From a virus, in IMG/VR virus record IMGVR_UViG_3300045004_000088, positions 1-64,000 of that record: DNA of 64,000 nt. One strand, written 5' to 3'. Below the pieces are notes generated by a model. The model was not told the origin of the DNA and searched no databases. It worked only from the letters and a program-made list of their open reading frames with translations. The first letter of the stretch is position 1. Each line of letters starts with the position of its first letter. Positions 39,501 to 63,376 of this stretch are shown piece by piece. The position numbers and the translations under genes were made by a program.

Positions 39501-41377
39501 TGACCGAAGGTATGGTGATTCCGATCAAGACGCAGTTCCCGACCGTGGACGAAGTTCAGGACATGGGCGGAAGACTTGAAGGAATGACGCAGATCGTTGC
39601 CAAATTGCCGAAGTTCATGGAGGATCTGTACTCCAAGATTAAAGAAGGTTTGGCACTGTTAGATCAAAACAAGATCGAGGGCAACGAGGTAACACGATTT
39701 ACGATATGGTTCTATAACGTTGCCTCGATGTTGAACTTCGGTATTGTGATGCCGATCACGACCGGATTCCCGCCACAGAAAGAAGCGGACGACGCTATCG
39801 CCAAGCTCGACAAGATGACAGAGATCGTATCAAAGTTGCCGTCAATCGTTCAGAGCTTGAGCGAGGCGACGGCCGGCGCTCGCGAGATGATGAAGAGTTC
39901 GGGCATTTGGGGCGCGTACCGCGACATGGACATGTTCATGTGGGAAGCGGGCTTCATCATCCGTCGCGGCGTGATGGAGCCGATGCAGACATGGCCGAAA
40001 GACAGCGAGATGACCGACGCCGTTGCCCGCATCACCAAGATGGACGAAATGTTCAAGACGATGGCTCAGGCTATGGAAAGCATGGCCGCGTCAGCTAAAG
40101 CTATGGCTTCTGTTGATCTAAGTCAGTCTATGAACATGGGGAGTTTGGGCAACCCTGAAAATGGCAACTTAGCCGAGTTCGTGAGTGCGTTCGCGGAACA
40201 GAACGCCGAGTCGATGGGCATGAACGATACTAATTCTTTGGTTGATGTGATGGGTCAACAATCTCCACAAATCACATCGATGCAAAGTGCTTTGCGAATT
40301 GTCGAGAACTACACCCACGACATCAAGGATCTGTTCGAGCGGTCGTCCAGTGTCATCGGTGACATCCAGAAGACCAGCGAGTACATGTCGATGTTCGGTG
40401 ATTTGGACTTCTACGAGAACCAGATCTCCGAGAAGATCGCGCAGAGCAAGCAGTTCGTGCCGACCGTCCAGAGGATTGCAGAGAACATCGGTAAAGGCTT
40501 CGACTTTGCCGGCGGCAAGGCGTTGCTCGAAACCATCGCCGGACAGAAAGTCCGCATGGATGAAATGGCGGCGGGTCTGAAGGAAACAGAAGACTACACC
40601 AAGAAATTGGCGGAAATCTTCACGATGGCGAACAACGCCGTCAACATGATCAAGCAGACCACCAACAACCTGACGCAACTCAATGCCATCAAAGACGTTG
40701 AGAAAGAAATTACGGCCAAGATCGCGTCGGGCAACAGCTTCATGGTGTCGGTGTTGAAGACGGTCGAGGCGGTCGCCACCAACTTCGGAACCAACGAAGA
40801 GGTCAAGACGACTCTGATGGGTGTGCAGGCCAAGATCAAGGCGGCGGGCGACACGAATCAGGCGTTGACCGACTCTTTAAAGTTCATCGAGACGGTTAAA
40901 CAGTTGCAGAGCAACGTGTTGTCAATCGGCCAAATGGCCAAAGACAAGCCGCTTGGCGGTGGCGTGCCGGGTGCCGGCGCTCCTGTCAGCATCCCGGCCG
41001 CTAAGACCGGATTGAGTACGCCTGAGCCGGTACAGACCGCTTCGACAACGGGCGCGGCCAACTTGGACGTTGAGAAGACGATCATGAGAGATCAGGCGAC
41101 TTCTCAGCCGCCGGCCGGTGGCAACAAGAACGCGGTCGATTTCAGCAACTTGCAGAAGGCGATTGAAGAGAACAAGATGACCAACGACGAGATCCTCAGC
41201 GTGCTTCAGGCCATGTTGCGGCTGATGACGCCGCGTTCTGGAAGCAACACGGCACCGGGCGGGGACACGAATACATATTCGCGTCCCGACAAGCCGGCTG
41301 CTTACTACCGCGCACCCGTTGGCGACTTCAACAGTTCCGCAGGTAAGGGTGCCACCAACATGGTAAGGACCAGATAA
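33578..41377 (+). CDS. tail tape measure protein (2599 aa) with poly-Gly tract, helical N-terminal third, 7 tandem 84-aa tri-TM repeats and 3 tandem 90-aa repeats
   Basis: Size, position before the baseplate genes, GAGGA RBS; repeats read directly. Confidence 0.8.
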   Translation: MADPQLHVVVDAIGRNVNMNIDPNQWDELKSSITAGMKSVVGEVASVISQKTSSQCKSIEAALNEMSSSFAEEISGLKRVMNELGQKIDNIGKGTGTPTLGGDVSGSLGVIQTNTQAVLDYVKGEFKTAFAGQASDIRAMKDMASTPGKFFTHDQETHRLLGGLKAAIEACCPGSSVVDKTPSVAPSPTERAAPSAAPSGGGGGGGGGGGGGGPSPMDRARAFEAAMNAATTSNEGMNDSLTRGRRAYRQHREDMMATDDALEGFIGHVADLQEAFFVFSKDMSFLKDTFLGTFKSMFKEAVHEEVKFIKETRAAINETQGLTAETRGLQDAMTDIGKTAKTTGVGRSEFQASYLKALKSGIKDQKIAMAVTTAQLNTEKQLGLEAGELTEEFIKWNNQYNMSTMQIAEMGRGMRDIARYTGLTGKELANAVKQGDNFVEVLRNAAMLSASAAKNVMEIAANAQKMGVTKQIEPLIKAMASTNNLFREASSETRAFLFQAAAQVGRTGDLMKGTILKTKGGIKDMEKGMEMMLKKFGVQSVEAIDNLSDEAKMKLNLQLKAAYGLELGELQQSLKALKESSKTLADRLDDIRKKQQGNLTLEEKLALKEEERRLKTSKSFEMLTSLDEAAKGAKDMNAALSKFGERRKDFEGDLKAMGKSWGSNAGAARDAINEALKGVNESLKASGKSELSIDSSEIEKALKDPAAFRELSAKLTKAEQEAATAQKAALDPMSKIEQGVRELNDTMRNFTSSFLSSYMNLTGVLGVLAPLLGMMAAQQALSIARWRADKDFGVMGVLKKGLGKIFGYGGKKKGGAGDVAPGAAAGSGVDAGKGVEALAKDGLGGVSHVEDDTVAGLLRQLLHCLCSPKANGIENDEFKNIGKKNKANAAQIEQGAVAKAEKKAGGAAAKEKSKASAGGDDTKSILDKIEKLKGDGPRIAKAAGIIAALTIGIVLLGAVLIKLANMLFSKLKLDIKTVIETAAIIGVIMGAAGLIGTALYYAKPHLDKLADAEKDINAMVKNMWKGAKALAKLSGPLLVFAAELAIFGKIVLGALGLSPGRLLLIAGTWIALALGIAGIAEAIVRSGPMYAQLPVATKMMHTLHKELWAAVGAFGLVTLPLIAFAAIMALFGYVVIDKFGLTPGRMFAIAATWLILAVAVGAIGYALTASLPGWATMGAGLSAVWSIYPMLWSAVAAFALVSLPLIAFAGLLALFGYVVIDKFGLSPGRMFAIAATWLILAVAVGAIGYALAASLPGWVTMGAGLSVIWALMPVLLNAVAAFALVSLPIIAFAALLAGFGYIVIDQLGLTPGRMFQIAATWLILAVAVGAIGYALTASLPGWVTMGVGLGVIWSLLPLLFMAVAAFALVSLPIVAFAAILAAFGTIVIDELGLTPSRMFDIAATWLVLAIGIGAISYALIEATPGWSMLGIAYPFLLYAYGLMWLGVGAFALVSLPILALAEIIAEFGDTLDELGLTPERMKQIGETFVTLSETIGELCMSMLGATAKLAVLGVLSIFSVLMMSLAMLGVGAFAVLAIPILALGSAISNFGRTIIDDMGLTPERMQAIQDSFTSLTDTIRSLSWKMISATASLSLLGVLLIFSTLASTFIWMGALAFLVMMGPFQFLAYMLSKFAESVDIEGVKKAGEICEAIAKTISTIPPVIKSLTDELLPLMEPRWWGLVGPSKMEKALKVTTGFFSKNFAAILSFISYGIIDPIFGIGPGAAGVKLNPRDIQTAANVMKGLADMLPAIPPVIDALNGPIADLSKKSWFGYGSNKLEKTLNKLKDGFHSSFAAILNFISYGIIDPIFGIGAGAFGTKLNPRDVQTAGKIMKGLAEMLPAIPPVIDALNGPIADLSSKGWFSGKNKLQKTLAKLQQGFQQNFTAILSFISHGIIGPIFGAGQAEGEGIMLNPRYIQMAANVMKGLADMLPAIGTMIDTLGSGIQKILKSSKMRMKMDAIETFATWFANVARLLTEGMVIPIKTQFPTVDEVQDMGGRLEGMTQIVAKLPKFMEDLYSKIKEGLALLDQNKIEGNEVTRFTIWFYNVASMLNFGIVMPITTGFPPQKEADDAIAKLDKMTEIVSKLPSIVQSLSEATAGAREMMKSSGIWGAYRDMDMFMWEAGFIIRRGVMEPMQTWPKDSEMTDAVARITKMDEMFKTMAQAMESMAASAKAMASVDLSQSMNMGSLGNPENGNLAEFVSAFAEQNAESMGMNDTNSLVDVMGQQSPQITSMQSALRIVENYTHDIKDLFERSSSVIGDIQKTSEYMSMFGDLDFYENQISEKIAQSKQFVPTVQRIAENIGKGFDFAGGKALLETIAGQKVRMDEMAAGLKETEDYTKKLAEIFTMANNAVNMIKQTTNNLTQLNAIKDVEKEITAKIASGNSFMVSVLKTVEAVATNFGTNEEVKTTLMGVQAKIKAAGDTNQALTDSLKFIETVKQLQSNVLSIGQMAKDKPLGGGVPGAGAPVSIPAAKTGLSTPEPVQTASTTGAANLDVEKTIMRDQATSQPPAGGNKNAVDFSNLQKAIEENKMTNDEILSVLQAMLRLMTPRSGSNTAPGGDTNTYSRPDKPAAYYRAPVGDFNSSAGKGATNMVRTR
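34177..34220 (+). repeat. (GGN)13 simple-sequence tract encoding Gly13 within the tape measure gene
   Basis: Read directly. Confidence 0.8.
36757..38520 (+). repeat. 7 tandem copies of a 252-bp unit (84 aa, about 3 TM helices each) inside the tape measure gene; copies 2-4 nearly identical at DNA level
   Basis: Unit anchors at 36757, 37009, 37261, 37513, 37765, 38017 and 38269, all 252 bp apart. Confidence 0.8.
38708..39520 (+). repeat. 3 tandem roughly 270-bp units (SYGIIDPIFGIG...NPRDIQTA...MLPAIPPVIDALNGPIADL) in an AT-rich part of the tape measure gene
   Basis: Read directly at 38708, 38981 and 39251. Confidence 0.7.
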
Positions 41378-41928: not shown

Positions 41929-42249
41929 GTGGCCAACTTCTTTGAAGAAACGAACATAAACCCCAGAACTTACTTCACTGCCGCGAGTCGGTATTCCGAC
42001 TCGACCATCTGCTATTACACGGACATGAAACGCCTGTCACTTACGACGTACAAGCGTGGCGTTTCTGCCGTGACCCCCAACGACAAATTCATGGTAATCG
42101 GGAAGGGCCAAGAGTACCGTCCCGATCTGGTCAGTAGTCGCGTCTACGGTCTGCCCGATTTCTGGTGGCGGATCATGGAGGCTAACGGGATCTACGACAT
42201 TTACGACTTCAAGGCCGGCGTCAACATCCGAATCCCCTCAATGATCTAA
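41929..42249 (+). CDS. LysM-like tail protein (gpX-like; ...GLPDFWWRIMEANGIYD...IKAGVNIRIPS)
   Basis: C-terminal LysM-like pattern; GTG with GAGGTGA RBS (the track start is a GTG at 41923). Confidence 0.45.
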   Translation: MANFFEETNINPRTYFTAASRYSDSTICYYTDMKRLSLTTYKRGVSAVTPNDKFMVIGKGQEYRPDLVSSRVYGLPDFWWRIMEANGIYDIYDFKAGVNIRIPSMI

Positions 42250-42258
42250 GGAAAACGT

Positions 42259-43692
42259 ATGTCTTGTAACGCAATTTGTTTGCCAGAATATCAATGTGGT
42301 GATCTACAAAAAATAAAGCCCAACACTGGCGCGGTTTACGCACCATTTGTGACAATGACATTGGGTGGAACTATCACCGTTGGTAACAAATCATTCCCAG
42401 GAGAACCCAACACAGCCTGCATCAAATCTTTTGAATTTGGCGGCTCGACTGGTGCTGGCTGTACTGTAGAAATAATTGATGAATCTGGTGGTAGTTTTGT
42501 GAGATATTTCAATGCAGTTAACAAAAATTTATGTCAAGCCGCCGATGATCACAATATGGAAATTAACTTTGGATGGATCTCCAGATCGACAGATGGAAAT
42601 TTAACCAAAATCGGAATTCCTGAAGGGCCGATATTTTTCATACCCGGAAAAATAGAAAGCGTGTACGAAGGAGGTGTTATAAAATACACGTTGAATGGAA
42701 CCGATATGTTAACCCACATGGCAGAAAGTCGCGTGCAAGTACCTGTTGGAACAGAATCAAATAAAGTTAGATTGATGCCGGCGGTAAGAAAAATGGCGTC
42801 AAGAAATTGTCCACCACTCAATAACATCAGATATTTAAGACGAAATGGACCAAATCTAACTGAATGGAGATTCAAAAATAGTGATGGCGGGCCAGAGGGT
42901 CCAATGGGAGTTTGGCAGGGAGATCAACAAAATCCTATTTCGGCCATGAGAAAATTTTTCAATTCCTTGACGACAGACCGTAATAAAGGATTTTATGCTA
43001 TTTGGAACTCTGGGTCATCAGTTCCAGAACTTTGGTTCATGGAAGATTCGCGACCATATTGTGACGAAACGTCTAATGGATTTTTTTGTGCTGGAACTTA
43101 CATTGTAAACGGAGGAGATTGCAGCCCTGTAATTAGCTTTAACCCAAAAGCAGAATGGCAATATACTGCTGATCTTAATTCGGGTGGTAACTTGGGAGGT
43201 GCCACATCTGCTAAGAATATAGAACAACGACCGCCAATAGAACAAAGACGAAGCGGGAATTGTAAGGACATAACCACTACTCAACGTGGTGCTGGTACTA
43301 CAACACAATTCGCCGCACCACAAAACGACATCAATTGGCGGTCGCCAGATCAAATTACTCCAAAAATGCAAAAAGCTATGGCGGAACACGAAACGGCGGC
43401 ACACTACAAAGAGCTGCAAGCGCCTATGGAAGCCGAGTTAAAAATACATGGCGACACAAGCTTTGTCCATCAATCGCGATGGGCCGATGCTGTTGTTTCG
43501 ATAATCGTAATAAATCCATTTCAAATTTTTTCAGGTGGTTCATACCACGAATGGCTCGCCGGGCCAATGTGTAACCCAATTTTTTCAGACAAAGAATGGA
43601 TGATAAAAGGTGTTAACCATCAAATTTCTGATGGAGCTTATACTACGACCTTAAAAGTACAATGTATGAATGTAAACAAGACTGAACAATAA
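42259..43692 (+). CDS. tail/baseplate protein (477 aa, AT-rich gene; positional analog of Mu gp43 or P2 gpD)
   Basis: Position and size; sharply lower GC than neighbouring genes. Confidence 0.5.
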   Translation: MSCNAICLPEYQCGDLQKIKPNTGAVYAPFVTMTLGGTITVGNKSFPGEPNTACIKSFEFGGSTGAGCTVEIIDESGGSFVRYFNAVNKNLCQAADDHNMEINFGWISRSTDGNLTKIGIPEGPIFFIPGKIESVYEGGVIKYTLNGTDMLTHMAESRVQVPVGTESNKVRLMPAVRKMASRNCPPLNNIRYLRRNGPNLTEWRFKNSDGGPEGPMGVWQGDQQNPISAMRKFFNSLTTDRNKGFYAIWNSGSSVPELWFMEDSRPYCDETSNGFFCAGTYIVNGGDCSPVISFNPKAEWQYTADLNSGGNLGGATSAKNIEQRPPIEQRRSGNCKDITTTQRGAGTTTQFAAPQNDINWRSPDQITPKMQKAMAEHETAAHYKELQAPMEAELKIHGDTSFVHQSRWADAVVSIIVINPFQIFSGGSYHEWLAGPMCNPIFSDKEWMIKGVNHQISDGAYTTTLKVQCMNVNKTEQ

Positions 43693-45806
43693 TGACAAAT
43701 TTATCAGACCAAATACGACAACTAGAAACAGAACTAAAAAAAGTTAAAGCTGTTCTTTCTTCAAGTCAATACGAAATGGCTAAAGTCGCAACTACGACTT
43801 TGAACGACCGTACCCACATTGTTTCTCAATCAGAACAAATGTTTGGCATGTACACTGCCCTGTGTGTTGAAACCAAAGATGTTTGGAAACAGAACCGCAT
43901 CCGTTTTTATTGCCCCTTGTTCCAGTCTCCCGACAGCCCGATGAAAAGTCTGCCGTGGGCGTGGCCGATCTCGCCTATGGGCGGGTTTGATGATTCCGGC
44001 TGTTCGTGGGTGCCACCAGCCGGCTCGACCGTCTGTTTGATTTTCGAGGGCGGCGCGAGAAACGCACCTTTCTACATTGGCACAACGTGGCATCGTAACC
44101 GAGGACCAGAAGGGGCCAATGTATGGACCATTGACATCGCGGAGTACCAGAAGGTGTGGTCGGGTCACCGCAAGGGCTACCTGTGTGGACCCAACGACGA
44201 GAGCCAGTGTTTGCCGCCGTGGAACACCGAATCTTCAAACGGGTTCGACCTTAATAGCATCGTTGACTTCGATGCGAACCCGGAAGCCCAAAAGATGTTG
44301 ACCTACCCGCACATTTACGGGTTCAAGACGCCAGAAAAACACATGCTCAAAATGGTTGACGGCGATGCGTCGTGTGACCGCCGGTGGAAAAGACTTGAGA
44401 TACTCTCGTCTTGCGGCAACTGGCTGATCTTCAAAGACGATCACCTGCACTACGCCGGCCAATACGCACACCCGACCACGGGCGGCGTTGTCAAAACGGG
44501 TGACGTGACGTGCATCGAAGGTGCCGCACCCGGCATCGACATTACCAGGGCAATCGGCCTCGGCGATTTCTTGCCGGACTTAAACCCCGTTGACTCCGGG
44601 GCCGATTTCGGCAGTGCGGACGAAGGGTCAGTGGAAGACGACACGCCGAAAGAGGGAGCTAAAATTTCAAACCCCGCTTGCAGTGCAAAAATTGTTGGCG
44701 GTCATCCCGACACACCTTACTTCCCGTCGTGGAAACCGACCAAATATCAAAAACAACAGATAGGCGCGAACCCTTTTTTCAAACACGAAAACGAGTGCCG
44801 ACCGTATCGCGGGCCGGGCAACAACCGTAACAACACCGCCATGTTGCCCCAGAGCGGCATCCAGATGATGTCTATCAGCGGCCACACATGGGTCATGGAC
44901 GACTCGGTCGAAGAACCGACTGGCGATTGCGTGTGGGAACGATCACTACGACCGTTCGACTATGGGTGCAACAACATTTTCAACGGTTACATGGGACTGT
45001 TCAGCAGTTCGGGTCACAAATTCATCATGAGTGACATCGAGCAAGACGAGCCGAACAAAAGGGGCGAAGACAATTACATCCGTCTAGAGTCGCAGGCAGG
45101 CAACATCATCGAACTCAACGATATGGAGAAGGAGATCGGGATCGCCGGTTTCCGTCGCGGCATCAGCATGCGTTCGACCAGCAAACACTTGTTCATGATG
45201 ATCGATGAGGACAACGAGCAAGACTTGATCCCGCGAAGCGATGGTAACCAACCGGTCAACAAGGCGAAGAAAGCGTTCATCAAGATCCGGTCGGGTTACG
45301 GTATCGAGTTCAAGATCGAGGACACCAACTCGCAGGAGAATACGGTTGCCCAGTCCCTGCAAATGTTCTGTCCGCAGAAGGACAATACCGAGCGTGGCCC
45401 GCACATCATGAGGTTCCAAGAGGCTCCGAGTGGTCCGGGTCAAATCATGCTTCGTGCCGGCGGCGACTACATTACAATAAGTTACGACGATCACGTCGAG
45501 ATGGTGGGCGACAAGGAAAAGAATCCAAGTAACAAGATCGGCATCATTTCCAAGAACAAGGTCGTGTCAACGGAACAGGTTTACATCAACCTCGCCCGCA
45601 TGCACGTCTTCTTGGCTAAGGAACAGATCCTGTTGTTGGCCGGTCAGGATTGTCCGTCCGAGAACGGCGAGATGGCTCCGTGTCCGGCACAGATCCTCGT
45701 GTACCACGAGGGCAAGATCAAGATCAGTGACCGCGTCATCGGAAGCTGTTCCCCGAAGGCTCCGTGTGCGTCGATCTTCATGATGTCGCCGTTCGTTTCG
45801 TGCTAA
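43692..45806 (+). CDS. baseplate hub / central spike-like protein (704 aa)
   Basis: Position between the gpD-like and gp25-like genes; TAATG coupling. Confidence 0.45.
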   Translation: MTNLSDQIRQLETELKKVKAVLSSSQYEMAKVATTTLNDRTHIVSQSEQMFGMYTALCVETKDVWKQNRIRFYCPLFQSPDSPMKSLPWAWPISPMGGFDDSGCSWVPPAGSTVCLIFEGGARNAPFYIGTTWHRNRGPEGANVWTIDIAEYQKVWSGHRKGYLCGPNDESQCLPPWNTESSNGFDLNSIVDFDANPEAQKMLTYPHIYGFKTPEKHMLKMVDGDASCDRRWKRLEILSSCGNWLIFKDDHLHYAGQYAHPTTGGVVKTGDVTCIEGAAPGIDITRAIGLGDFLPDLNPVDSGADFGSADEGSVEDDTPKEGAKISNPACSAKIVGGHPDTPYFPSWKPTKYQKQQIGANPFFKHENECRPYRGPGNNRNNTAMLPQSGIQMMSISGHTWVMDDSVEEPTGDCVWERSLRPFDYGCNNIFNGYMGLFSSSGHKFIMSDIEQDEPNKRGEDNYIRLESQAGNIIELNDMEKEIGIAGFRRGISMRSTSKHLFMMIDEDNEQDLIPRSDGNQPVNKAKKAFIKIRSGYGIEFKIEDTNSQENTVAQSLQMFCPQKDNTERGPHIMRFQEAPSGPGQIMLRAGGDYITISYDDHVEMVGDKEKNPSNKIGIISKNKVVSTEQVYINLARMHVFLAKEQILLLAGQDCPSENGEMAPCPAQILVYHEGKIKISDRVIGSCSPKAPCASIFMMSPFVSC

Positions 45807-50800: not shown

Positions 50801-50970
50801 ACCGGCGGAACTCGGAAGTGATCACCTCCGTCACGGAGACGATGTCGCCGATGGCGATGAGCATGGCAGCCGCCCCAGAGCCGGGGTTCTCTGACTTTGT
50901 GAAACAAGAAGAGAAAATCAACTTCCGCATTGATTACGCGGACGGAACAGTCGAAGAGGGGAGCCTATGA
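47815..50970 (+). CDS. large baseplate wedge / tail fiber protein (1051 aa)
   Basis: Position in the baseplate operon; size. Confidence 0.5.
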   Translation: MAEKTIYEVPSVTDTVVIPFLTPDADQCLLQNPYMVNNLTIYYIERDFSGGNVTQFDVETRNQDAERAATEAQNAACLDPTQENILEARKLRAQADSMRVSRPVYYNDAVPVAVIGNSSYPAWLSTDTPNALIENVPLDEEGNTVYGHFQYVWNPVGMREGNYIACWTWTPLAAGETLSQNLSFSLMGNNAITTSIPTHATPPEKYQTLLDTYLPEMYKSTLSEDDVTPSVLTRFNKSVGQGFTVLENLANQILDIMDANSTDEAFLGLLGRMFGLKLRSEDPTRWRKQIKLAVPLYKMKGTRAGLEMAFDLAGMRMTSLVRGWQIISPYTWVETFKAAGGEMEFVLSRVAQPIDSDNFEVSVRKAGNSYYTDYLPSDVSINTSDGVSTLTIENNISLENGDILRVLYQYAAIPNPTQQDIEDYIRLLPLTDQRDETVQDYPPKNWNVRLLEENDPLFSILIPNKHPYHDFLVFGKIRTEFPYSENVYNMDEYNGSIRDSLEPCDMDKDFVDPCSQCLGSKYIIDIEVDRLCDDRVNEAKDILKEFVPFHALPQTINFSGSMEDFVQPPVETIECLIYYRGSETVIAGSDQMVFNRAMIPSGMPLDQILRNTLATSTLVASGTATAYNRQIMLFSPDVPISNTGLSTDPTETVLEIYGPHPHAGNYQVTNAVGHAVEVYGPISPTSPLTEPINQSAFSFSLSNIIYENSDTSIVTDNFYKLKDATWDLAELGVKSQWDVDNGYATTAWTIKMTAYSATPYTIQDIKPEGEIVIAQDPSLPNVNATGVAYSIIRPDASVAHTGTLNLSVELRGLVTVTDGVLTDVRGVMIQPLAGQYFLYYNDTGDQYVVSELVDGETHQFYINGWSGGSVGGKSIALYDRLIDTRYGLLTYQGIGLNTVINYESSLGISNGQNPVLVPLEDSKFKENFIVVINDPVNGADEETFAIADIDGTTITLDGDIHYWTTLGNGGTSVPFEIYNYETLPVTVAGVPFQRLDRRNSEVITSVTETMSPMAMSMAAAPEPGFSDFVKQEEKINFRIDYADGTVEEGSL

Positions 50971-51443
50971 AAACCGAAGACCAAGTGCAATGTATCGGTT
51001 GGGTCGAAGCCGTCATCGAATACAAAGACGGCCGCAAAGACACTTTGCGGTTCAACAACAGCGTCATGAGGCGGGGACGGGCGGCTCTGGCCGCAGCCCT
51101 GAGCAACTCCCTTAGTGACGGGTTCAATTTCTACGTCAGCCGAATGATTTTCGGCGACGGCGGCACGTCCGGGGGCGTTCCGAAGTTCGTTGACACGAAC
51201 AGGAACGGCCTTTACGGTTTGACGCGGGCGAGTAAGCCCGTCGTGGCGAGCGTGGACCCGACGACCCCTAGCAAAGCCGTGTTTACCAGCGTGTTGACGT
51301 TTAACGACGCCAACGGGTACGCCCTGAACGAAATGGCGTTGGTAATGAACAGCGGCGACTTGTACAGTCTGGCGACGTTCCCAGACCTCAACAAGACTGA
51401 CGCCATGCAGATCACATGGTCTTGGTCGGTTAATTTTGTCTAA
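50967..51443 (+). CDS. small tail-associated protein (158 aa)
   Basis: ATGA coupling. Confidence 0.45.
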   Translation: MKTEDQVQCIGWVEAVIEYKDGRKDTLRFNNSVMRRGRAALAAALSNSLSDGFNFYVSRMIFGDGGTSGGVPKFVDTNRNGLYGLTRASKPVVASVDPTTPSKAVFTSVLTFNDANGYALNEMALVMNSGDLYSLATFPDLNKTDAMQITWSWSVNFV

Positions 51444-51460
51444 AATAGCTTTTGAAAATA

Positions 51461-51470
51461 CTATAATACC
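51461..51470 (+). promoter_or_regulatory. CTATAATACC (TATAAT -10) 3 nt upstream of the ATG of the homing endonuclease gene, no SD
   Basis: Read directly. Confidence 0.45.
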
Positions 51471-51473
51471 TGC

Positions 51474-52493
51474 ATGAAGAATTTATACCCGCAATTGACT
51501 ACCCGTCAGCATGAGATATTCATAGGAAGTATGCTTGGCGATGGCTGTCTTAGCCGTCAACCTGTTAACTGGAATTGGCTGATTCAGCAGAGCTTTGCCG
51601 ATCATAAAAACTTTCCAAAAGAAAGCTACATGCAGTTTTTTTTAGATGAGCTAGGAGGCTGGTCCAGATGTGCAAAAATTGTTATGAAGTCTCATCGAGC
51701 CAAAATTATCGACGGCAAGATCGGTCGAGTGCAGTGTGAACCATATCCGACTTGGAGATATGAGTCTTGCAATCATCTGATTTGGACGGAAATGGGCAAG
51801 AAGTGGTATGCCCCTCAGTTGGTGAACGGCAGAATCAGGAAGGTCATTCCTAACGATCTCAAACTGACTCCGCTATCGATGGCGATATGGTACATGGATG
51901 ACGGGGTCAATCAAGCTAGAGACGCCCAAGCCAAACTATGCACCAATGGTTTTACCGAAGAAGAGGTTGTTTTCCTGGCGGAAGTAATGAAACGTGACTT
52001 GTCGATCAAGGCTGTCAAGTCGAGAGTCAAAAAAGACCGCAGTCAGTTTTTACTTCGTGTCAACCGTGAAGCGTATTTTGAATTCATTGACATTATAAGG
52101 CCAGAGATCAAGTGGGACTGCTTCGGTTACAAAACGGACACCTCCGGGTACGTCAAGAAAGACAACAAGGGAGCCAACCACGGAAAGTCTAAATTAAACG
52201 ACGAGAAATCGCAGGAGATTTTTCGGTTGAGGCAGATAGGTCGTTCTCGTAAAGAAGTCGCGGCCATATTTGGTGTGACCGAAGCGTGTGTGACACGCAT
52301 CGCTTCTGGGCAAGGATGGAAACATCTGGGAAACCCGATGGTGCGACAACACAAAAAAATGACCGCAGAAGACAGAACGCAAGCATTAAGGCTTCTGGCA
52401 GAAGGTAAGGATCAAGAAGAGGTCGCAAGCATTATCGGCACATCACAGTCGAGCATCAGTAGATTGTTAAACAAAAAAACGTTCGCAAAATAG
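51474..52493 (+). mobile_element. LAGLIDADG homing endonuclease with C-terminal HTH domain, AT-rich, inserted in the tail module
   Basis: Motifs IGSMLGDGCL and MAIWYMDDG read directly; C-terminal sigma-70 region-4-like HTH; GC drop. Confidence 0.65.
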
Positions 52494-52504
52494 GTGAACT
52501 TCGT

Positions 52505-52702
52505 ATGACATGCAAGAAAGAGAATGAAAATAATTTGCCGGTCAACGCGGATGTCATATACATCCCCAGTGTGATCGGGCAAATAAACAAAATTACATTC
52601 CCCAGTATCATTGTCTGTGAAGTAAACGTGCCTAGTGTGATCGTAATGGACGAGCTTGACATCCCAAGTATCATTACGGTCGATTGGGCTACAGGAGCAT
52701 AA
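52505..52702 (+). pseudogene. 65-aa AT-rich ORF made of (I/V)PS(V/I)I repeats resembling the repeat region of the 61184-63376 fiber-like protein; possible gene fragment
   Basis: Read directly; adjacent to the homing endonuclease gene. Confidence 0.3.
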
Positions 52703-53103
52703 TGAACGATTGGTTGAAGCGCAGCTATGCAAAGCAGAAAAGGCAAGCCGACAGACGTACTCTCGAAGGTATCGATGAGATCGTCAACAAATGGAAAAAA
52801 GCCGAAGACAAAAAAGAGTGGGGCGACAAGCTCGCGGTGATTTTGACGATCATGGCTCGCAACGTTATTGAGTTTGCGAAGCCGGACCTTCCTCTGGAAG
52901 AAAAGATCGCAAATCATCGCGAAATAATGAAAAGAGCGGCTAGTTCGCTCCCCTGCATAGACACGACCAGACACCGGGCTTTCACTTACCTGATGACCAA
53001 AATGTTGTGCGTGTTGCGTCAGAACACGATGACGAGAGAAGAACTACTGGAAGCACACAAGGAGTATCGTGAGTACCTTGCAAGTAAGCACCCTAGAGCT
53101 TGA
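52702..53103 (+). CDS. hypothetical protein (133 aa)
   Basis: ATG in TAATG overlap. Confidence 0.5.
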   Translation: MNDWLKRSYAKQKRQADRRTLEGIDEIVNKWKKAEDKKEWGDKLAVILTIMARNVIEFAKPDLPLEEKIANHREIMKRAASSLPCIDTTRHRAFTYLMTKMLCVLRQNTMTREELLEAHKEYREYLASKHPRA

Positions 53104-57040: not shown

Positions 57041-57772
57041 ATGTCAACAGAGAACAGCATTGCGGTGGAATCAAAATCAACCTTAGAAAACCTGCAAGCC
57101 GTGGTGGAAAAACACCCTTTGACGGGCAGGCATTCGTACTTTCAGCTTAAATACTTCATCGTCGGGAAGGAGCCGACGCCGCAGGCCAAGATCTGGCAGT
57201 GCCTCCGTGAGATGAAGGCCCGCCGAGACGCACTCGAAGCCATCCAGTTGGAACGTGACGAAACCAACGACCGCATCGAACTGGCCGAGATCGACATCGA
57301 ACGGCTGAAAAACCCCCGGAAGGGAGCGTTCGGCATCGACGTGCCGGAAGAAGACGAACTGACTTTGAAGCGGCGTGAAATCAAGATCCGGCAGTCCGAG
57401 CGAAAGCTCAAGTCGATGAAGAAGGCGCTGAAAGACTTGGACGCCCGCCAAAAAGACACAGAGGAAGAAGCGGCGTTCTTCTTGCAGGCGTTCGCGGACC
57501 TGACCAAGAACCAAAAAGTCATCGAGTACGACGACTTCAACGCCCAGAAGGAATACTGGACGACGCGGTTCTCCAACGAGATGAACATGAAGTTTATGCT
57601 CGACGGCCGGGTGGACGGGGAACTGGCGAAAGCGATCCTGTCGCTGCCAGACGAAACCGTCGTGAAACAAGAAATGTTCGGCATCCTGAATCGGCAGCAA
57701 GAGATTTTGGAAGCGAAACGACTGATGGAAAAGAAACAGCTTGCTCAAATGAAGGTGGCCCTGAATGGCTGA
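57041..57772 (+). CDS. coiled-coil protein (243 aa)
   Basis: ORF track. Confidence 0.5.
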   Translation: MSTENSIAVESKSTLENLQAVVEKHPLTGRHSYFQLKYFIVGKEPTPQAKIWQCLREMKARRDALEAIQLERDETNDRIELAEIDIERLKNPRKGAFGIDVPEEDELTLKRREIKIRQSERKLKSMKKALKDLDARQKDTEEEAAFFLQAFADLTKNQKVIEYDDFNAQKEYWTTRFSNEMNMKFMLDGRVDGELAKAILSLPDETVVKQEMFGILNRQQEILEAKRLMEKKQLAQMKVALNG

Positions 57773-58775
57773 TCAGATTTCGACCCTCGACTCGAACTAC
57801 TCGACAGGCGACCTTTCGACGTTCCCGACCACCCTCGACTCGTGGATCTCGCTTTACGAAGCCCGGAACGCGGCGATCACATCACTTCGGCAGAGCGTTA
57901 CGTTCAACTCGAAGTTCATGATCGTGCAGGACACGTCCCTGTTCCCCGACACCGGCATCTTGCACATCGGCAAGAACCCCGGCGATCCGGGGCTTGGCGA
58001 GTTGGTCTGGTACGGGGCGAAAACTGCCACCTCGTTCAGCAAACTCATTCGCGGGTTCGCCAAAACGAAACAGACCTACTGGCCGCAGGGTTCGCCGATC
58101 ACCAGTGGCGTGGCGGCGGAACACCACAACGCGATCAAGGACGCGATCATGCAGATTGAACGCGACCTGGGTCTGTCTCAGTTCCCGAACGAATTCAGCT
58201 TGAACGGTATCCTCCAAGCACAAGAAAACCGATTCTTGGCCCCGAAGCCGTTGTTCCGTGGTTTTCCGATCCGTGGTGCGCCGCCGCTGAAGGTGCGGTT
58301 CCAAAACTTCACGGTCGGGAACCCGGTTCGGTTCCTGTGGGACTTCGGTGACGGCACGACATCGGTCGAACGCTCGCCGATCCACACCTATTTGGCCGAG
58401 GGCGTGTACACCGTCAAGTTGAACATCATTACCGGCACCGGCGCACAGGGGGTCGTCACCAAGAAGAACTACGTCACTGTCAACAAGGACCAGAAGACAC
58501 CGTTCTTCTATGTCCTGCCGTTGCAGGGCGACAGTATAGAAACCAACCCCGGATCGCCGACGACGTTCAGCTTCGTGGACCAGACCGATGGCGAGGTGTC
58601 CGAACGGTACTGGATCTTCGGCGACGGCAACAACCTCAACGTGACCGACCCCAACGTACACACGGCGGATTACTCATACGCCAAACCCGGAACCTATTCT
58701 CCTTCCCTGATGGTCATCTTCGCCGACCAGACTTTGAAGCGGGTGTTCCTGTCACAGAAAATCACGGTGTTTTGA
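57765..58775 (+). CDS. PKD-domain tail fiber-like protein (336 aa; WDFGDGTT, WIFGDGNN)
   Basis: PKD signature read directly; N-terminus paralogous to the next two genes. Confidence 0.6.
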   Translation: MADQISTLDSNYSTGDLSTFPTTLDSWISLYEARNAAITSLRQSVTFNSKFMIVQDTSLFPDTGILHIGKNPGDPGLGELVWYGAKTATSFSKLIRGFAKTKQTYWPQGSPITSGVAAEHHNAIKDAIMQIERDLGLSQFPNEFSLNGILQAQENRFLAPKPLFRGFPIRGAPPLKVRFQNFTVGNPVRFLWDFGDGTTSVERSPIHTYLAEGVYTVKLNIITGTGAQGVVTKKNYVTVNKDQKTPFFYVLPLQGDSIETNPGSPTTFSFVDQTDGEVSERYWIFGDGNNLNVTDPNVHTADYSYAKPGTYSPSLMVIFADQTLKRVFLSQKITVF

Positions 58776-61036
58776 TGGCTATCCCAACCGCAAGTTTGTT
58801 CCCCACTTCGTTCGACGGAAACAGAAACCTGTTTCTCGTTCACGACGGGTTGCGCCTCGTTTTGGCCGCTGATTACAACCCCGGAGACACCAGCATCACC
58901 GTTCACAAGAACGACCTGATGATGAACAACTTCCCTCCGAGCGGTTTGATCACGCTTACGGAACAGTGCAGCGAGGCGGAAGAACGAGCGATCTCGTTCT
59001 TCTACAGCAGCCACACCGACACCACGTTCGACGGCATCGAAATCCTGCCAGAGTTCACTGACGGCGTGAAGCCCGCGAACATCACGAACGTCACAATGAA
59101 CGTGATGGACAAGCACCACAACCATCTCAAAGATGCGTTAATCGCCATCGAAGAGTTCATCGGAGTCAAAGGGACGGAAGACGACGAACCGTTCGGGCCA
59201 ACGATGGAAGGCCGAATCAACTTCTTGAGAAGGATCGTACTCTGTCCGAAGGCGTGGTTCTCGGTCAACAAAACTATCGGGTTGGTCCCGTTCGAGGTCG
59301 AGTTCACGAACCTGTGTTTCCGCCTGGGTACGGACGGGAACGCGGGCAACGTGGTTTTCGAGTGGAACTTCGGCGACAACACGGCGTCACAAATCTCGAT
59401 CATCGAGGTTGTCAGCGAGGTGCCTGTCAACGTGGTGAACGTCTTGGTTGACAACGAGACGGGCGGTGTCATATCGAAGACCTACACGACGCCGGGCGTG
59501 TACGACGTGTCCTTGAAAGCCACCAACGACTTCTGCTCCGACACGGTGGTGTTCCCCGGCTTGATCACGGCACGGATCGCGGCCCCAGATCCCGCTATTG
59601 TCGAATACATCCCGGCGACGGGCCAGATTCTGACGCCGGGATACCCGGTGGGCGGGCCGTTCGTAACCACGCCGGTGATCCGCGCCGTCACGAACTCAAT
59701 CATCAACATTGAAATTCAGTCGGGCGTTAACCCGTCAACCGGCCGCACCTATTCGGGCGAAGCCGTGAACGGGTCGGGGTTCCCGATTGACCCGATTGTG
59801 GAATACACATGGGACATCCCCGACGACCAGTTGCACAGCAACAGCCGGAACACGAAGGCGATCTTCGGTATCGGCGGGATGTACGACATGGTGCTGCGTG
59901 TGGACACGTCCTTCGGCGCGTACCGCATTACCAGCTACAAGAACAGCTTCGACATCATCGAGAAGACGAACCTGTGGCTGTGGACGTTCGGCACCGGCAC
60001 GACGATCAAGTCATACGAGTTCGGCCTGTTGAGCGAAACGTTCAAAACCAAGAGCGGCATTTCGGTCCCCATCGGGTTGAACAACAACTTTTTGAACGGG
60101 GTGGCGAACGAAGACAAACAGAAGTTCGAGTTCCGACGCAACAACGGGTTCGCCCCGATAGGCACACAGCAGTCCGGCAGCCAGGGGCAGGGACTGCTGT
60201 ACTGGGCGAGTGGCAGAAACGCATCCGACCCGGTGGGTTCGGAACAAATCAACCTGATGCAATACACGGGGTTCACCGATACATACATCGTTCAAGATTC
60301 GATTGCGAGACAGTGGAACTGGGTCGCATTCAACTCGCTGAACAACTTGTACTTCATCCTCGGCACTATGCCGTCTTACCCGCCGTTCACCTCGCCGACC
60401 AATCAATCGCGGATCTCCATGTCGTTGGCGACACTGGACTACGCGGTGGATTACCTGACGACGAGCAACTACGACAACGGCTCGGACGAGTTGATGAACA
60501 ACAAGGCCAACTACGACGGCGGCGGTGTCGCGGTGGACGGCGATTTCAGCGTTTACCGCTCAGCTTGGCACGAGGACAACGGGTTCTTTTTGAGGAACGA
60601 CGGCGTCGGGGCGTTCTTCAGAATCAGGGACTTCTACAAGACCGAAGAGGTCGGCGGTATCGAGTTCAAGAACATCACCAAACTGCCGCCGATGGCGGGG
60701 CCGGCGAAGTTGGAAGGGCAGTTGGTGTCGTTGACGCCCGGCCTGTTCTTCTTCAACAACACCGGGCAGTTGAGCGTGTTCAACGCCGCGACGAGCGTGT
60801 GGCAAACGAACACCGGCACCAACATCTCGCAGTTCCGCGCGTTGCAAGACTCGACTGTGATCAACTTCGATTCCGACGAGAACACGCTTCTGGCGACTTC
60901 GGACGGCGACAACGTAGCTTATTTGAGTTACGACTACAGCACGAAAGCGTTCATGACGTTCAACGCAGTAACTACCACGTTCACCTCGCTGAATCCGAGG
61001 CCGAGCGGCGAGCAATGGCAAATGAGTGTTTACTGA
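58772..61036 (+). CDS. PKD-domain tail fiber-like protein (754 aa; FEWNFGDNTAS)
   Basis: ATGA coupling; shared N-terminal domain (HHN.L.DA...IE.F.G). Confidence 0.6.
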   Translation: MMAIPTASLFPTSFDGNRNLFLVHDGLRLVLAADYNPGDTSITVHKNDLMMNNFPPSGLITLTEQCSEAEERAISFFYSSHTDTTFDGIEILPEFTDGVKPANITNVTMNVMDKHHNHLKDALIAIEEFIGVKGTEDDEPFGPTMEGRINFLRRIVLCPKAWFSVNKTIGLVPFEVEFTNLCFRLGTDGNAGNVVFEWNFGDNTASQISIIEVVSEVPVNVVNVLVDNETGGVISKTYTTPGVYDVSLKATNDFCSDTVVFPGLITARIAAPDPAIVEYIPATGQILTPGYPVGGPFVTTPVIRAVTNSIINIEIQSGVNPSTGRTYSGEAVNGSGFPIDPIVEYTWDIPDDQLHSNSRNTKAIFGIGGMYDMVLRVDTSFGAYRITSYKNSFDIIEKTNLWLWTFGTGTTIKSYEFGLLSETFKTKSGISVPIGLNNNFLNGVANEDKQKFEFRRNNGFAPIGTQQSGSQGQGLLYWASGRNASDPVGSEQINLMQYTGFTDTYIVQDSIARQWNWVAFNSLNNLYFILGTMPSYPPFTSPTNQSRISMSLATLDYAVDYLTTSNYDNGSDELMNNKANYDGGGVAVDGDFSVYRSAWHEDNGFFLRNDGVGAFFRIRDFYKTEEVGGIEFKNITKLPPMAGPAKLEGQLVSLTPGLFFFNNTGQLSVFNAATSVWQTNTGTNISQFRALQDSTVINFDSDENTLLATSDGDNVAYLSYDYSTKAFMTFNAVTTTFTSLNPRPSGEQWQMSVY

Positions 61037-61164
61037 TTAAATAAGAAAATCAGGTTACAAGTTCATCACGAAGATGGTGACTGGTTCAACAATGAGCCTT
61101 ACAACTTGAAATTCATTTGCCCCAACTGCCACAGTCAAACCCCAAACTACTGTGCTGGTAATCG
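61037..61164 (+). pseudogene. HNH endonuclease relic: ...VHHEDGDWFNNEPYNLKFICPNCHSQT..., no start codon or N-terminal domain
   Basis: HH..G..N...NL...CxxCH signature read in frame in an AT-rich intergenic stretch. Confidence 0.45.
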
Positions 61165-61183
61165 AAAAAAGTAAAGAGGTTCT

Positions 61184-63376
61184 GTGCCACAAGGATTTCC
61201 ACCACAGCCCGTTTTCCCCTTCGCGATTGACAGCAACGGGACGCTATTCCTCGTGAACAACACGACGGAGAGCCGGCTCACCGCCGACAACCAAGCGTGG
61301 TCGGACACGGTTCCCATTGCGCCCGTCGCTGCCGACGCCGACGAGATCTGGCCGGACAACGGGTTCGCCACCATTTCGGGGGAGATTCTTTACTACGATT
61401 CCGTCGAACTTGACGACAACGACAAAGTCAAGACGTTGAAGAATTGCGTCAGGAACTTGGGCGGCGTACACACCCAGTTCAACTTGGCCGGGACCGACGT
61501 GCGTGGCTTCGTGATGGCCGAACACCACAACCAGTTGGTGGAAGCGACCCTTCGCATCGAACAGTTCGTCGGGACCAACTTTACGGAAGACCAATCGACA
61601 CTCGACTGGCGCATCCGAAACCTCCAGGCACAGAACGTCCTGTTTGACGACTTCTCGTGCGTTGACGTGGTGTTCACCTTTGTAACAATTTCTACCGACC
61701 CCGCGAGCGGTACGGTAGTGAACTTCACCGTCCAACTGACCGGAGACTACAACAGCTACCGACTCGACTTCGGTGACGGGAGTTTTACCGAAAGCTTGCT
61801 GTCAGGCACGCACACCTACGCTCCGAACACCATCATCGACCCTGTTGTCACAGTGAGCAACAACAGGTGTACCGTCGCACAGACGCCGCCGGTGCGTTTG
61901 ACTCCGACCGAACCGGCCGAAATCAACACGATCACGGAGTTCTTCGTGCCGGTGTGCGAAGTGCCGGACATCCCGCCGTTGATCTTGCCCGAAATCAATC
62001 CGCCCACGGTACAGATCGGATTCCCGCCTCTGGTGATCCCGTGCGTCAACGTCAGTCCCATCGGGCCGATTGACATTCCGTCAATTGTGACGTTCGAGCC
62101 GGCAATCAACATTCCGAGTCTGATCGAATTCGGGCCGATCAGCATTCCGAGCGAGATCGTAATCATCGGGGGCGTAGACCTACCCAGTGAGATCACAATC
62201 ACCGGGCCGGAAATCCCCACGGCCATTGTGATCGAAGGCGGCGTAATCCCAACGGTCATCACGGTCGAAGCGGGCGTGATCCCCACGGTGATTACCATAG
62301 AAGGCGTTGAGATCCCCACGTCAATTGACGTGTACGACGACATCCCATCGGTGATCGAGGTGACCGATGACGTTCCGTCAGTGATCGAGGTTATTTCAAA
62401 CATCCCGACTACGATCACCGTGTACCATAACATCCCGACCACAATCGATGTTTACGCGAACATCCCGACAACGATTAACGTCTACGGATCTTTCCCGACC
62501 TCGATCAACGTCTACGGGTCTTTCCCGACCTCGATCTTGGCGTACAACGTTGACATCCCGACTTCGATCTTGGCGTACAACGTCAATATCCCGACTTCGA
62601 TCTTGGCATACAACGTCAATATCCCGACTTCGATCTTGGGGTACAACATCAACATCCCGACTTCAATCTTCGCATACAACGCGAACGTCCCCACGGTAAT
62701 CGACGTGAACTGGAACCCGGTGCCGGTTCTGAGTTGCGTGGTCACGGTCAGTTGCGGAAGTACGTCGGTGACGCCGATGGCGATGATGTCGGGCGGGTTC
62801 GAGGAGAGCTTCGTTGACAGCTTCCAGTCGGACCCTCCGCTGGTAACCGCGCAAGACATCGGCATCCCGTCCGAGATCAAGGTCGTGGTGCCGGAAATAC
62901 CGGACATGAGACTGGTACACGATCTGCCAATGTTCATCGAGGTTCGCGGAACCACGTTGCCGACCTACATCGAAATCAAGGCCGAGACGCCGATTCCGAA
63001 CGAGATCTCTTTGAAACACAACCTGCCTGAGTTCTTTGAACTGAGGGCGACTAACGTACCGGAATTCATTTTCTTGAAGAACAAGGACGTACCTGAGTTC
63101 ATCGAATTGCGAATGGCCGAGGACGTGCCGAGGAAGCTGATGATGGAGTTGGTGGGCGTACCTGAATCGATCCAACTGGTGGGTGCGCCGACCGCGATCC
63201 ACTTGGTCAGCAACGTCCCGACCGCGATCCACTTGGTCCTGCCAGAGAAGCCGGAAGTGGAAATGGTGTACCGTGGCGACCCGATCACGCACAAGGTCGA
63301 ACTCGACATGAGCAAACTACTCAGCGACGACGAGGGCGAGGGCCAGTGCGTCAGATTCGTACCGTGTAGGAGGTAA
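61184..63376 (+). CDS. PKD-domain repeat-rich tail fiber-like protein (730 aa) with long array of 10-11-aa (I/V)PTxIxVY repeats; GTG start
   Basis: RLDFGDGSFTE PKD motif; AAGAGG RBS; repeats read directly. Confidence 0.6.
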   Translation: MPQGFPPQPVFPFAIDSNGTLFLVNNTTESRLTADNQAWSDTVPIAPVAADADEIWPDNGFATISGEILYYDSVELDDNDKVKTLKNCVRNLGGVHTQFNLAGTDVRGFVMAEHHNQLVEATLRIEQFVGTNFTEDQSTLDWRIRNLQAQNVLFDDFSCVDVVFTFVTISTDPASGTVVNFTVQLTGDYNSYRLDFGDGSFTESLLSGTHTYAPNTIIDPVVTVSNNRCTVAQTPPVRLTPTEPAEINTITEFFVPVCEVPDIPPLILPEINPPTVQIGFPPLVIPCVNVSPIGPIDIPSIVTFEPAINIPSLIEFGPISIPSEIVIIGGVDLPSEITITGPEIPTAIVIEGGVIPTVITVEAGVIPTVITIEGVEIPTSIDVYDDIPSVIEVTDDVPSVIEVISNIPTTITVYHNIPTTIDVYANIPTTINVYGSFPTSINVYGSFPTSILAYNVDIPTSILAYNVNIPTSILAYNVNIPTSILGYNINIPTSIFAYNANVPTVIDVNWNPVPVLSCVVTVSCGSTSVTPMAMMSGGFEESFVDSFQSDPPLVTAQDIGIPSEIKVVVPEIPDMRLVHDLPMFIEVRGTTLPTYIEIKAETPIPNEISLKHNLPEFFELRATNVPEFIFLKNKDVPEFIELRMAEDVPRKLMMELVGVPESIQLVGAPTAIHLVSNVPTAIHLVLPEKPEVEMVYRGDPITHKVELDMSKLLSDDEGEGQCVRFVPCRR
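62340..62700 (+). repeat. array of 30- and 33-bp tandem repeats (unit such as ATCCCGACTTCGATCTTGGCGTACAACGTCAAT), at least 10 copies
   Basis: Read directly. Confidence 0.75.

Follow-up and report, generated by a model that had tools for sequence, protein, structure and literature searches.

A probable remnant of a free-standing HNH homing endonuclease gene at a tail-module junction of an uncultivated phage

The g2/g3 junction and its surroundings

The window, that is, the whole stretch of DNA analysed here, comprises 64,000 nucleotides (positions 1 to 64,000) of the IMG/VR virus record IMGVR_UViG_3300045004_000088. The features at the junction of two of its plus-strand genes, g2 and g3, are as follows.

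58772..61036, plus strand: g2, encoding an intact 754-aa PKD-domain protein of the tail/baseplate module (Pfam PKD_4, E=1.6e-10) that ends in ...QMSVY followed by TGA.
61037..61183: spacer of 147 bp between the TGA stop codon of g2 (61034-61036) and the GTG start codon of g3 (61184).
61037..61171, plus strand: 45 open codons of an HNH homing endonuclease, hereafter the relic (identified by translation, PHROG 10822, phmmer and alignments).
61037..61042, plus strand: TTAAAT, directly 3' of the g2 stop codon and part of a 9-nt identity (TGA-TTA-AAT) with the related locus L040.
61064..61069, plus strand: CAT CAC, encoding His10-His11, the 'HH' of the HNH motif with its general-base histidine (a conserved alignment column).
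61103..61108, plus strand: AAC TTG, encoding Asn23-Leu24, the conserved 'NL' with the middle N of HNH (sequence and alignment).
61118..61132, plus strand: TGC CCC AAC TGC CAC, encoding CPNCH, the second zinc-binding CxxC pair and the metal-binding histidine.
61172..61174, plus strand: TAA stop codon, probably that of the endonuclease gene itself (from the ends of the relatives P0194, P0188 and P0139).
61173..61183, plus strand: native spacer and ribosome-binding site of g3, AAAGAGGTTCT (alignment A1; shared with the closest relative, L021, which has no homing endonuclease gene here).
61184..63376, plus strand: g3, encoding 730 aa from a GTG start codon, with conservation over the N-terminal ~330 aa and a variable C-terminal part.

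The relic is read in the frame of the g2 stop codon, exactly as a preliminary description of the 147-bp spacer had stated, and its translation is LNKKIRLQVHHEDGDWFNNEPYNLKFICPNCHSQTPNYCAGNRKK, followed by TAA at 61172-61174. The only in-frame ATG, GTG or TTG is a TTG at codon 24, which has no Shine-Dalgarno sequence, and the relic is therefore without a usable start codon. The GC content of 61037-61171 is 0.393, compared to 0.558 for the window, and only 1.3% of 135-bp windows are equally low. Downstream, AAGAGG at 61174-61179 is followed by TTCT and then by the GTG of g3.

The C-terminus of g2 aligns to residue 754 in all relatives. Homologues of g2 number in the hundreds and are found on contigs of up to 690 kb; one of them, P0001, is a 100% match on JGI contigs that reach 475,914 bp, which indicates that the window derives from a huge phage. 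No match was found by blastn between the 4.7-kb region and GenBank phages, so this phage has no cultivated relative at the DNA level. The products of g1, g2 and g3 (57765-63376) have in common an N-terminal region of ~50-200 aa with 25-41% identity, as well as PKD repeats. The preliminary description had called the genes on either side of the spacer paralogous fiber genes with PKD domains. Paralogy of g2 and g3 was found, in a weak form (a common N-terminal motif of ~49 aa, E=4e-6), but the PKD match of g3 falls below threshold, and the term 'fiber' for g1, g2 and g3 is suggested only by their position downstream of baseplate genes. From about residue 325 of g3 (62150-62700), identity to L021 declines from ~80% to ~50% before the alignment is lost, and many relatives match g3 residues 1-340 only, a variable distal part being typical of receptor-binding proteins.

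Other regions of the window are also AT-rich. An intact free-standing LAGLIDADG_2 homing endonuclease gene of 339 aa (51474-52493, plus strand; Pfam 75.9 bits; PHROG 11023, E=2e-17), the product of which has C-terminal HTH domains, lies in an island (51331-52723) with GC content down to 0.36 versus 0.56, just downstream of an ORF resembling tail collar fibres (50967-51443). A second island (42172-43928, GC down to 0.29) covers an ORF of 477 aa (42259-43692) that has no Pfam or PHROG match, and lies directly upstream of the Phage_base_V (baseplate spike) gene (43692-45806); a foreign origin or rapid evolution of the gene may account for it. AT-rich stretches (38563-39770, GC down to 0.30) within an ORF of 2599 aa (33578-41377) form a segment with no family match, which an inserted domain or a mobile element could explain.

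Homology of the relic and occupancy of the junction in relatives

The similarity of the relic to HNH endonucleases, which the preliminary description had proposed from the sequence alone together with a tBLASTn check, is far above chance. The relic matches the 'HNH endonuclease' family PHROG 10822 (E=1.5e-14, profile positions 114-157 of 245) and PHROG 14736 (E=8e-12), and a tblastn search with it matched 262 phage records. The best of these (E=6e-9) is a 136-aa HNH endonuclease of Synechococcus phage DSL-LC03, with 60% identity over 42 aa; T5-type hegA/F-TflIV genes were also matched, F-TflIV of a T5-like phage with 52% identity over 42 aa. Among 1.84 billion representative proteins, phmmer found 8148 matches at E<=1e-3 and 56 at E<=1e-10. 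The Pfam HNH model PF01844 gave 14 bits, under the cut-off of 21.4, because only the second half of the HNH motif is present in the relic; intact relatives meet or come near the cut-offs of Pfam HNH and HNH_3. A tblastn search of the whole window with full-length HNH proteins revealed neither a second HNH copy nor, around the spacer, additional fragments in other frames, and the minus-strand ORFs of the spacer have no family match. A PDB sequence search with the intact relative P0126 as query gave no match. Exact 30-mers of the relic had no matches in viral and metagenome contigs, and neither an identical donor nor another copy of the source contig was found.

Alignment to intact genes identifies the relic as the C-terminal beta-beta-alpha-metal core of an HNH homing endonuclease. 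His10-His11 match an (H/D)H column that is invariant in 13 relatives, so that the first histidine of the HNH superfamily is in place, and NN...NL and CPNCH are present and aligned, supplying the conserved asparagine and the final metal-binding histidine; a DGD motif is likewise kept. Neither a frameshift nor an internal stop codon was found in the relic when it was aligned with its relatives, and all residues conserved in the family are kept. Thus, of the description of the spacer as a decayed endonuclease gene, truncation is borne out and decay is not.

Of the two zinc-binding CxxC pairs of the subfamily, the relic has only the second (C28, C31). The first would be expected ~10-15 residues 5' of codon 1, where the C-terminus of g2 stands instead. 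Among 76 close relatives, defined as proteins with >=55% identity to the relic, 67 have a CxxC pair no more than 25 aa upstream of the point where the relic starts, the median N-terminal length missing from the relic is 111 residues, and 21 terminate within 10 residues of its last codon. In the alignment, the relic starts immediately behind a conserved tryptophan located C-terminal to the first CxxC pair, and its end is '...NYCAGNRKK*'. The C-terminus of P0194 coincides exactly with this end, while P0188 extends one residue further and P0139 five; the relic therefore probably keeps the C-terminus and stop codon of its gene. What has been lost comprises the start codon, some 110-250 N-terminal residues made up of repeated '...ID(T)SHF' modules that are presumably DNA-binding, and the first pair of zinc ligands, so to the lack of a start codon and an N-terminal domain, both noted at the outset, the missing first CxxC pair can be added. 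A free-standing homing endonuclease gene (HEG) is a complete translatable ORF with nuclease and DNA-binding parts, and the window copy is not such an ORF. With the start codon, the N-terminal modules and the first zinc pair gone, a functional nuclease is out of the question; the copy is best regarded as inert, with neither independent translation nor a zinc-stabilised nuclease fold to be expected of it.

A truncated HNH ORF of 53 aa, P0195 (L044-L046), has the same alignment end as the relic and is also without the first CxxC pair. It was considered as a second relic at the g2/g3 junction and rejected, because it lies in an unrelated context of small genes in groundwater metagenomes; C-terminal HNH stumps thus recur elsewhere.

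The two proteins most similar to the relic among the 1.84 billion are both products of complete HNH genes, and both genes lie at the same junction. P0126 (219 aa, 72% identity), unsurpassed in the library as a single-stretch match, is encoded in L040 between the end of a g2 homologue (55% identity) and the start of a g3 homologue (45%). P0139 (298 aa, 70%) is encoded in L039 between homologues of g2 (53%) and g3 (62%), and upstream of it are g0, g1 and the same nucleoside deoxyribosyltransferase gene as in the window. A third such protein, P0194 (205 aa, 60%), is encoded on 24 contigs (L041-L043), again between homologues of g2 (52%) and g3 (46%). All three match PHROG 10822 (E 2e-46 to 8e-60). 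These intact genes, of 205-298 aa, have the orientation of the relic and a GC content of 0.26-0.38, in phages of 0.31-0.42 GC, and the span from the g2 stop codon to the g3 start codon in the intact elements is 646-1076 bp. The stop codon of the P0194 gene overlaps the g3 start codon, and in L040 and L041 alike the endonuclease stop codons overlap or abut that start; the window differs from L040 and L041 in having a native spacer of 11-12 nt after the relic.

Homologues of g0-g4 were found near other members of the endonuclease family at none of 80 other IMG/VR loci. Highest similarity and identical position, in a family not otherwise tied to the site, together argue for orthology of the relic and the junction genes, and the presence of an orthologous intact gene at the identical site in other genomes is characteristic of a HEG. 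It was suggested in the preliminary description that relatives with a full-length HNH gene at this junction be sought; such relatives exist (L039, L040 and L041-L043), their genes belong to the same subfamily, and their position at the exact junction confirms the proposal of a former HNH homing endonuclease that is now truncated. The comparison indicates that one HNH homing endonuclease lineage occupies the g2/g3 junction and that the window carries a stump of it.

Other relatives have an empty junction. In L021 (g2 86% identical at the amino acid level), a spacer of 12 bp separates the two genes (TGA|AAAAGAGGTTCT|GTG), and alignment A1, with L021 and L022, shows that the junction of the window equals that of L021 plus 135 bp placed right after the TGA. 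Nucleotide identity between the window and L021 is ~72-91% on both sides and unbroken up to the insert, and no co-conversion tract is visible in the flanks in this comparison. The g2-g3 spacers of 30 related loci, which represent about 22 lineages with 39-86% g2 identity, are 8-47 bp long and have no detectable HNH similarity. The insert is absent from L021, L022, L024, L032-L038 and L003-L020, and no full-length HNH copy was found at the junction among close relatives with 64-86% g2 identity. Thus, the element is inserted between conserved genes and is sporadically present and absent, as is typical of HEGs. Scans of metagenome and genome collections based on g2 contributed just two more genuine relatives, L024 and L025, and L025 and L020 represent a single contig; the remaining matches of these scans were rejected as relatives, their similarity being confined to PKD domains.

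A different homing endonuclease gene was noted at the neighbouring junction of one lineage, L032-L035 (68% g2 identity), where a complete gene of 212 aa, of GIY-YIG + I-HmuI_NUMOD-like type (for example, L032:1866-2504), lies between g1 and g2, with overlaps of 1 nt with g1 and 4 nt with g2. At 47 bp, the g2-g3 spacer of this lineage is also the longest of those without a HEG. The LAGLIDADG gene of the window and the GIY-YIG gene of L032-L035 indicate that homing endonucleases are active in this phage group and that they visit this module often.

Origin of the stump

The reading that best accounts for these observations, and that is very probably correct, is that a free-standing HNH homing endonuclease gene of the PHROG 10822 type, once complete and later truncated by deletion, has left its 3' end in the spacer. 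A complete element of ~650-1080 bp would formerly have occupied the g2/g3 junction, consisting of a short leader, 'ID(T)SHF' modules, a CxxC pair and the HNH core. It would most likely have arrived by homing or recombination from a relative of lower GC content, after the split from the closest known relative. One deletion of ~500-950 bp could then have carried away everything from the start codon through the N-terminal region to the first zinc-binding CxxC pair, sparing six bases of the leader, the 45 terminal codons and the stop codon of the gene itself, with the native ribosome-binding site of g3 directly 3'. A single 5' deletion would suffice, because the 3' end of the relic looks like the natural end of the gene; a scenario of two deletions was set aside, since many close relatives end at or near the stop codon of the relic.

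The sequence around the g2 stop codon offers a possible route for such a deletion. The TGA-TTA-AAT of the window is identical to the g2 stop codon plus the first 6 leader nt of the intact element in L040, and TTAAAT at 61037..61042 probably remains from the 5' leader of the element and marks where the deletion was joined. At the internal point that matches the start of the relic, the intact genes have TGG-CTA, TGG-CTT or TGG-TTG (Trp-Leu). The deletion would probably have occurred between the g2 stop codon with the adjoining leader (TGA-TTA...) and these conserved codons for Trp-Leu (TGG-YTN...), which lie a short way 5' of the core, and a deletion between such TGR-YTR (TGA/TGG) microhomologies would place the relic in frame with the g2 stop codon. 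The microhomology consists of 6-9 bases in AT-rich sequence and is found in one of three leaders (those of L039 and L041 differ from TTAAAT, and the identity with L040 is of 9 nt), so this route is put forward as a possible one.

The timing may be gauged from the pattern of divergence. The relic agrees with the intact genes mainly at first and second codon positions (31-34 and 34-38 identities of 45, respectively, compared to 14-25 of 45 at third positions), which suggests that most of the divergence took place under coding constraint, in a working gene. This pattern, together with the absence of decay and a GC content of 0.39 in a genome of 0.56, points to late arrival from a lower-GC relative and recent truncation rather than long residence. 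The best available match to the relic is 72% identical in amino acids and 70% in nucleotides, and none of the relatives found is near enough to be the donor. Recent homing from a divergent donor should leave a co-conversion tract in the flanks, and the fact that none was seen counts against the preferred explanation. In a rough neighbour-joining tree of g2, the clade of the window, whose other members are empty, has the HEG-bearing loci L039 and L041-43 as its nearest outgroups, and such a tree gives an approximate view of the direction and number of gains and losses at the junction. Its topology would also accommodate an ancestral insertion followed by several to many clean losses, which retains some residual likelihood.

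A different order of events would have the piece arrive already incomplete, through abortive or template-switching repair in homing or through illegitimate capture of an HNH fragment as filler DNA at a break, with the full-length gene never resident. The absence of a full-length copy from the relatives of 64-86% g2 identity, of a visible co-conversion tract and of point-mutational decay would all suit this possibility. It nevertheless appears distinctly improbable, since the relic's own subfamily occupies exactly this junction elsewhere, and since both the leader hexamer and the natural stop codon seem to be present. An element that was inserted at the proper site and then internally deleted would account for this more readily than would chance capture. 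The end result does not differ from that of the preferred explanation; what changes is only when the deletion took place.

Two readings that would give the spacer a present function are far less credible. The 45 codons might be expressed and functional, lengthening g2 at its C-terminus if the TGA is read through or giving a short peptide from the internal TTG, considering that they are open and in frame with the g2 stop codon and that every conserved residue is kept. There is, however, a one in three chance of such a frame, and the TGA/TGG microhomology explains it; g2 ends at the same residue in all relatives, whose spacers of 8-47 bp are in varied frames, so that TGA is a real stop codon; the first CxxC pair and the DNA-binding region are gone; no Shine-Dalgarno sequence precedes the TTG; and the closest relative has no insert. 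Expression is therefore extremely unlikely. Recoding of TGA stop codons was rejected on the same grounds, the relatives' spacers differing in length and frame and the end of g2 being identical everywhere. A spacer that is intergenic and AT-rich could alternatively be a regulatory or RNA element (a promoter, a terminator or a structured RNA) with only incidental resemblance to HNH endonucleases. Promoter-like and terminator-like sites were not found in a scan of the spacer, an Rfam search of it gave nothing at E<=1, its predicted RNA fold is of unremarkable stability (z-score -1.16), and the homology to HNH endonucleases at the protein level is overwhelming. This reading, to which hardly any probability was assigned, is effectively refuted by the homology.

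The remaining claims in the preliminary description concerned recombination: that the junction is a hotspot, and that the relic may explain a shuffling of fiber paralogs. The former holds in a limited sense, in that HEGs are found at this junction in several lineages and a GIY-YIG HEG is found at the neighbouring g1/g2 junction. The latter finds no support in the comparison of relatives: the gene order g0-g1-g2-g3 is constant in more than 30 related loci, the flanks are collinear, and identity is continuous up to the insert. The sole sharp drop in similarity to L021 lies ~1 kb downstream of the junction, inside g3 (~62150-62200).

Implications and comparison with known systems

By itself, the relic is inert and holds no surprise; selfish elements of this kind are known to end as truncated homing endonuclease genes. 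It does account for an odd AT-rich spacer of 147 bp in a tightly packed late operon, and, the spacer being a relic, it should not be annotated as a gene. Of wider significance is an HNH homing endonuclease lineage that is tied to one tail-module junction in a widespread group of uncultivated huge phages, with intact, truncated and empty alleles at one site as a tidy example of homing endonuclease turnover. The series of alleles also yields a prediction of the target site of the enzyme, which would be the HEG-less junction sequence, in L021 of the type ...GTTTACTGAAAAAGAGGTTCTGTGCCACA...

Nuclease genes have been reported at the boundaries of genetic exchange between phages (PMC10055350). A speculative extension, unlikely on present evidence, is that the g2/g3 junction is a dedicated homing site of one HNH lineage, that the relic is retained and masks the junction from intact copies during coinfections, in the manner of a 'vaccination scar', and that repeated cutting drives exchange of the distal part of g3. 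If this were so, homing endonucleases would be linked to the evolution of host range via the variable distal g3.

The relic has the same type of HNH core as the free-standing HNH endonucleases of phages (the mob genes of T4, hegA/F-TflIV of T5 and PHROG 10822). These too lie between conserved genes and are sporadically distributed among relatives, as at this junction; the mob and seg genes of T4 have the same intergenic and sporadic pattern (PMC2988022), and T4-type phages are the classic example of free-standing HNH and GIY-YIG genes in the intergenic regions that separate conserved genes (PMC2988022). Unlike them, the relic consists of only the last 45 codons, without a start codon, N-terminal DNA-binding modules or the first CxxC pair, and its host genome is that of an uncultivated huge phage. 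The intact junction genes (encoding P0126, P0139 and P0194) have the junction, orientation and subfamily in common with the relic, with 72%, 70% and 60% amino acid identity over the core, but are complete and belong to phages of 31-42% GC with just 52-55% g2 identity to the window.

A closer parallel to the truncation is I-TevIII in the nrdB intron of T4, an HNH homing endonuclease gene that, like the relic, is left as a non-functional deletion derivative; the full-length I-TevIII gene is kept in related phages. A review of T4 refers to the 'defunct I-TevIII endonuclease' (PMC2988022). I-TevIII is encoded in an intron, whereas the element of the relic is free-standing in an intergenic spacer. 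In the model attributed to Goddard and Burt, the life cycle of a homing endonuclease is said to consist of invasion, degeneration and loss. The relic would represent the 'degenerate' stage of such a cycle of invasion, decay and loss, and all three states are present at this locus: the gene is whole in L039-L043, cut short in the window and missing from the HEG-less loci.
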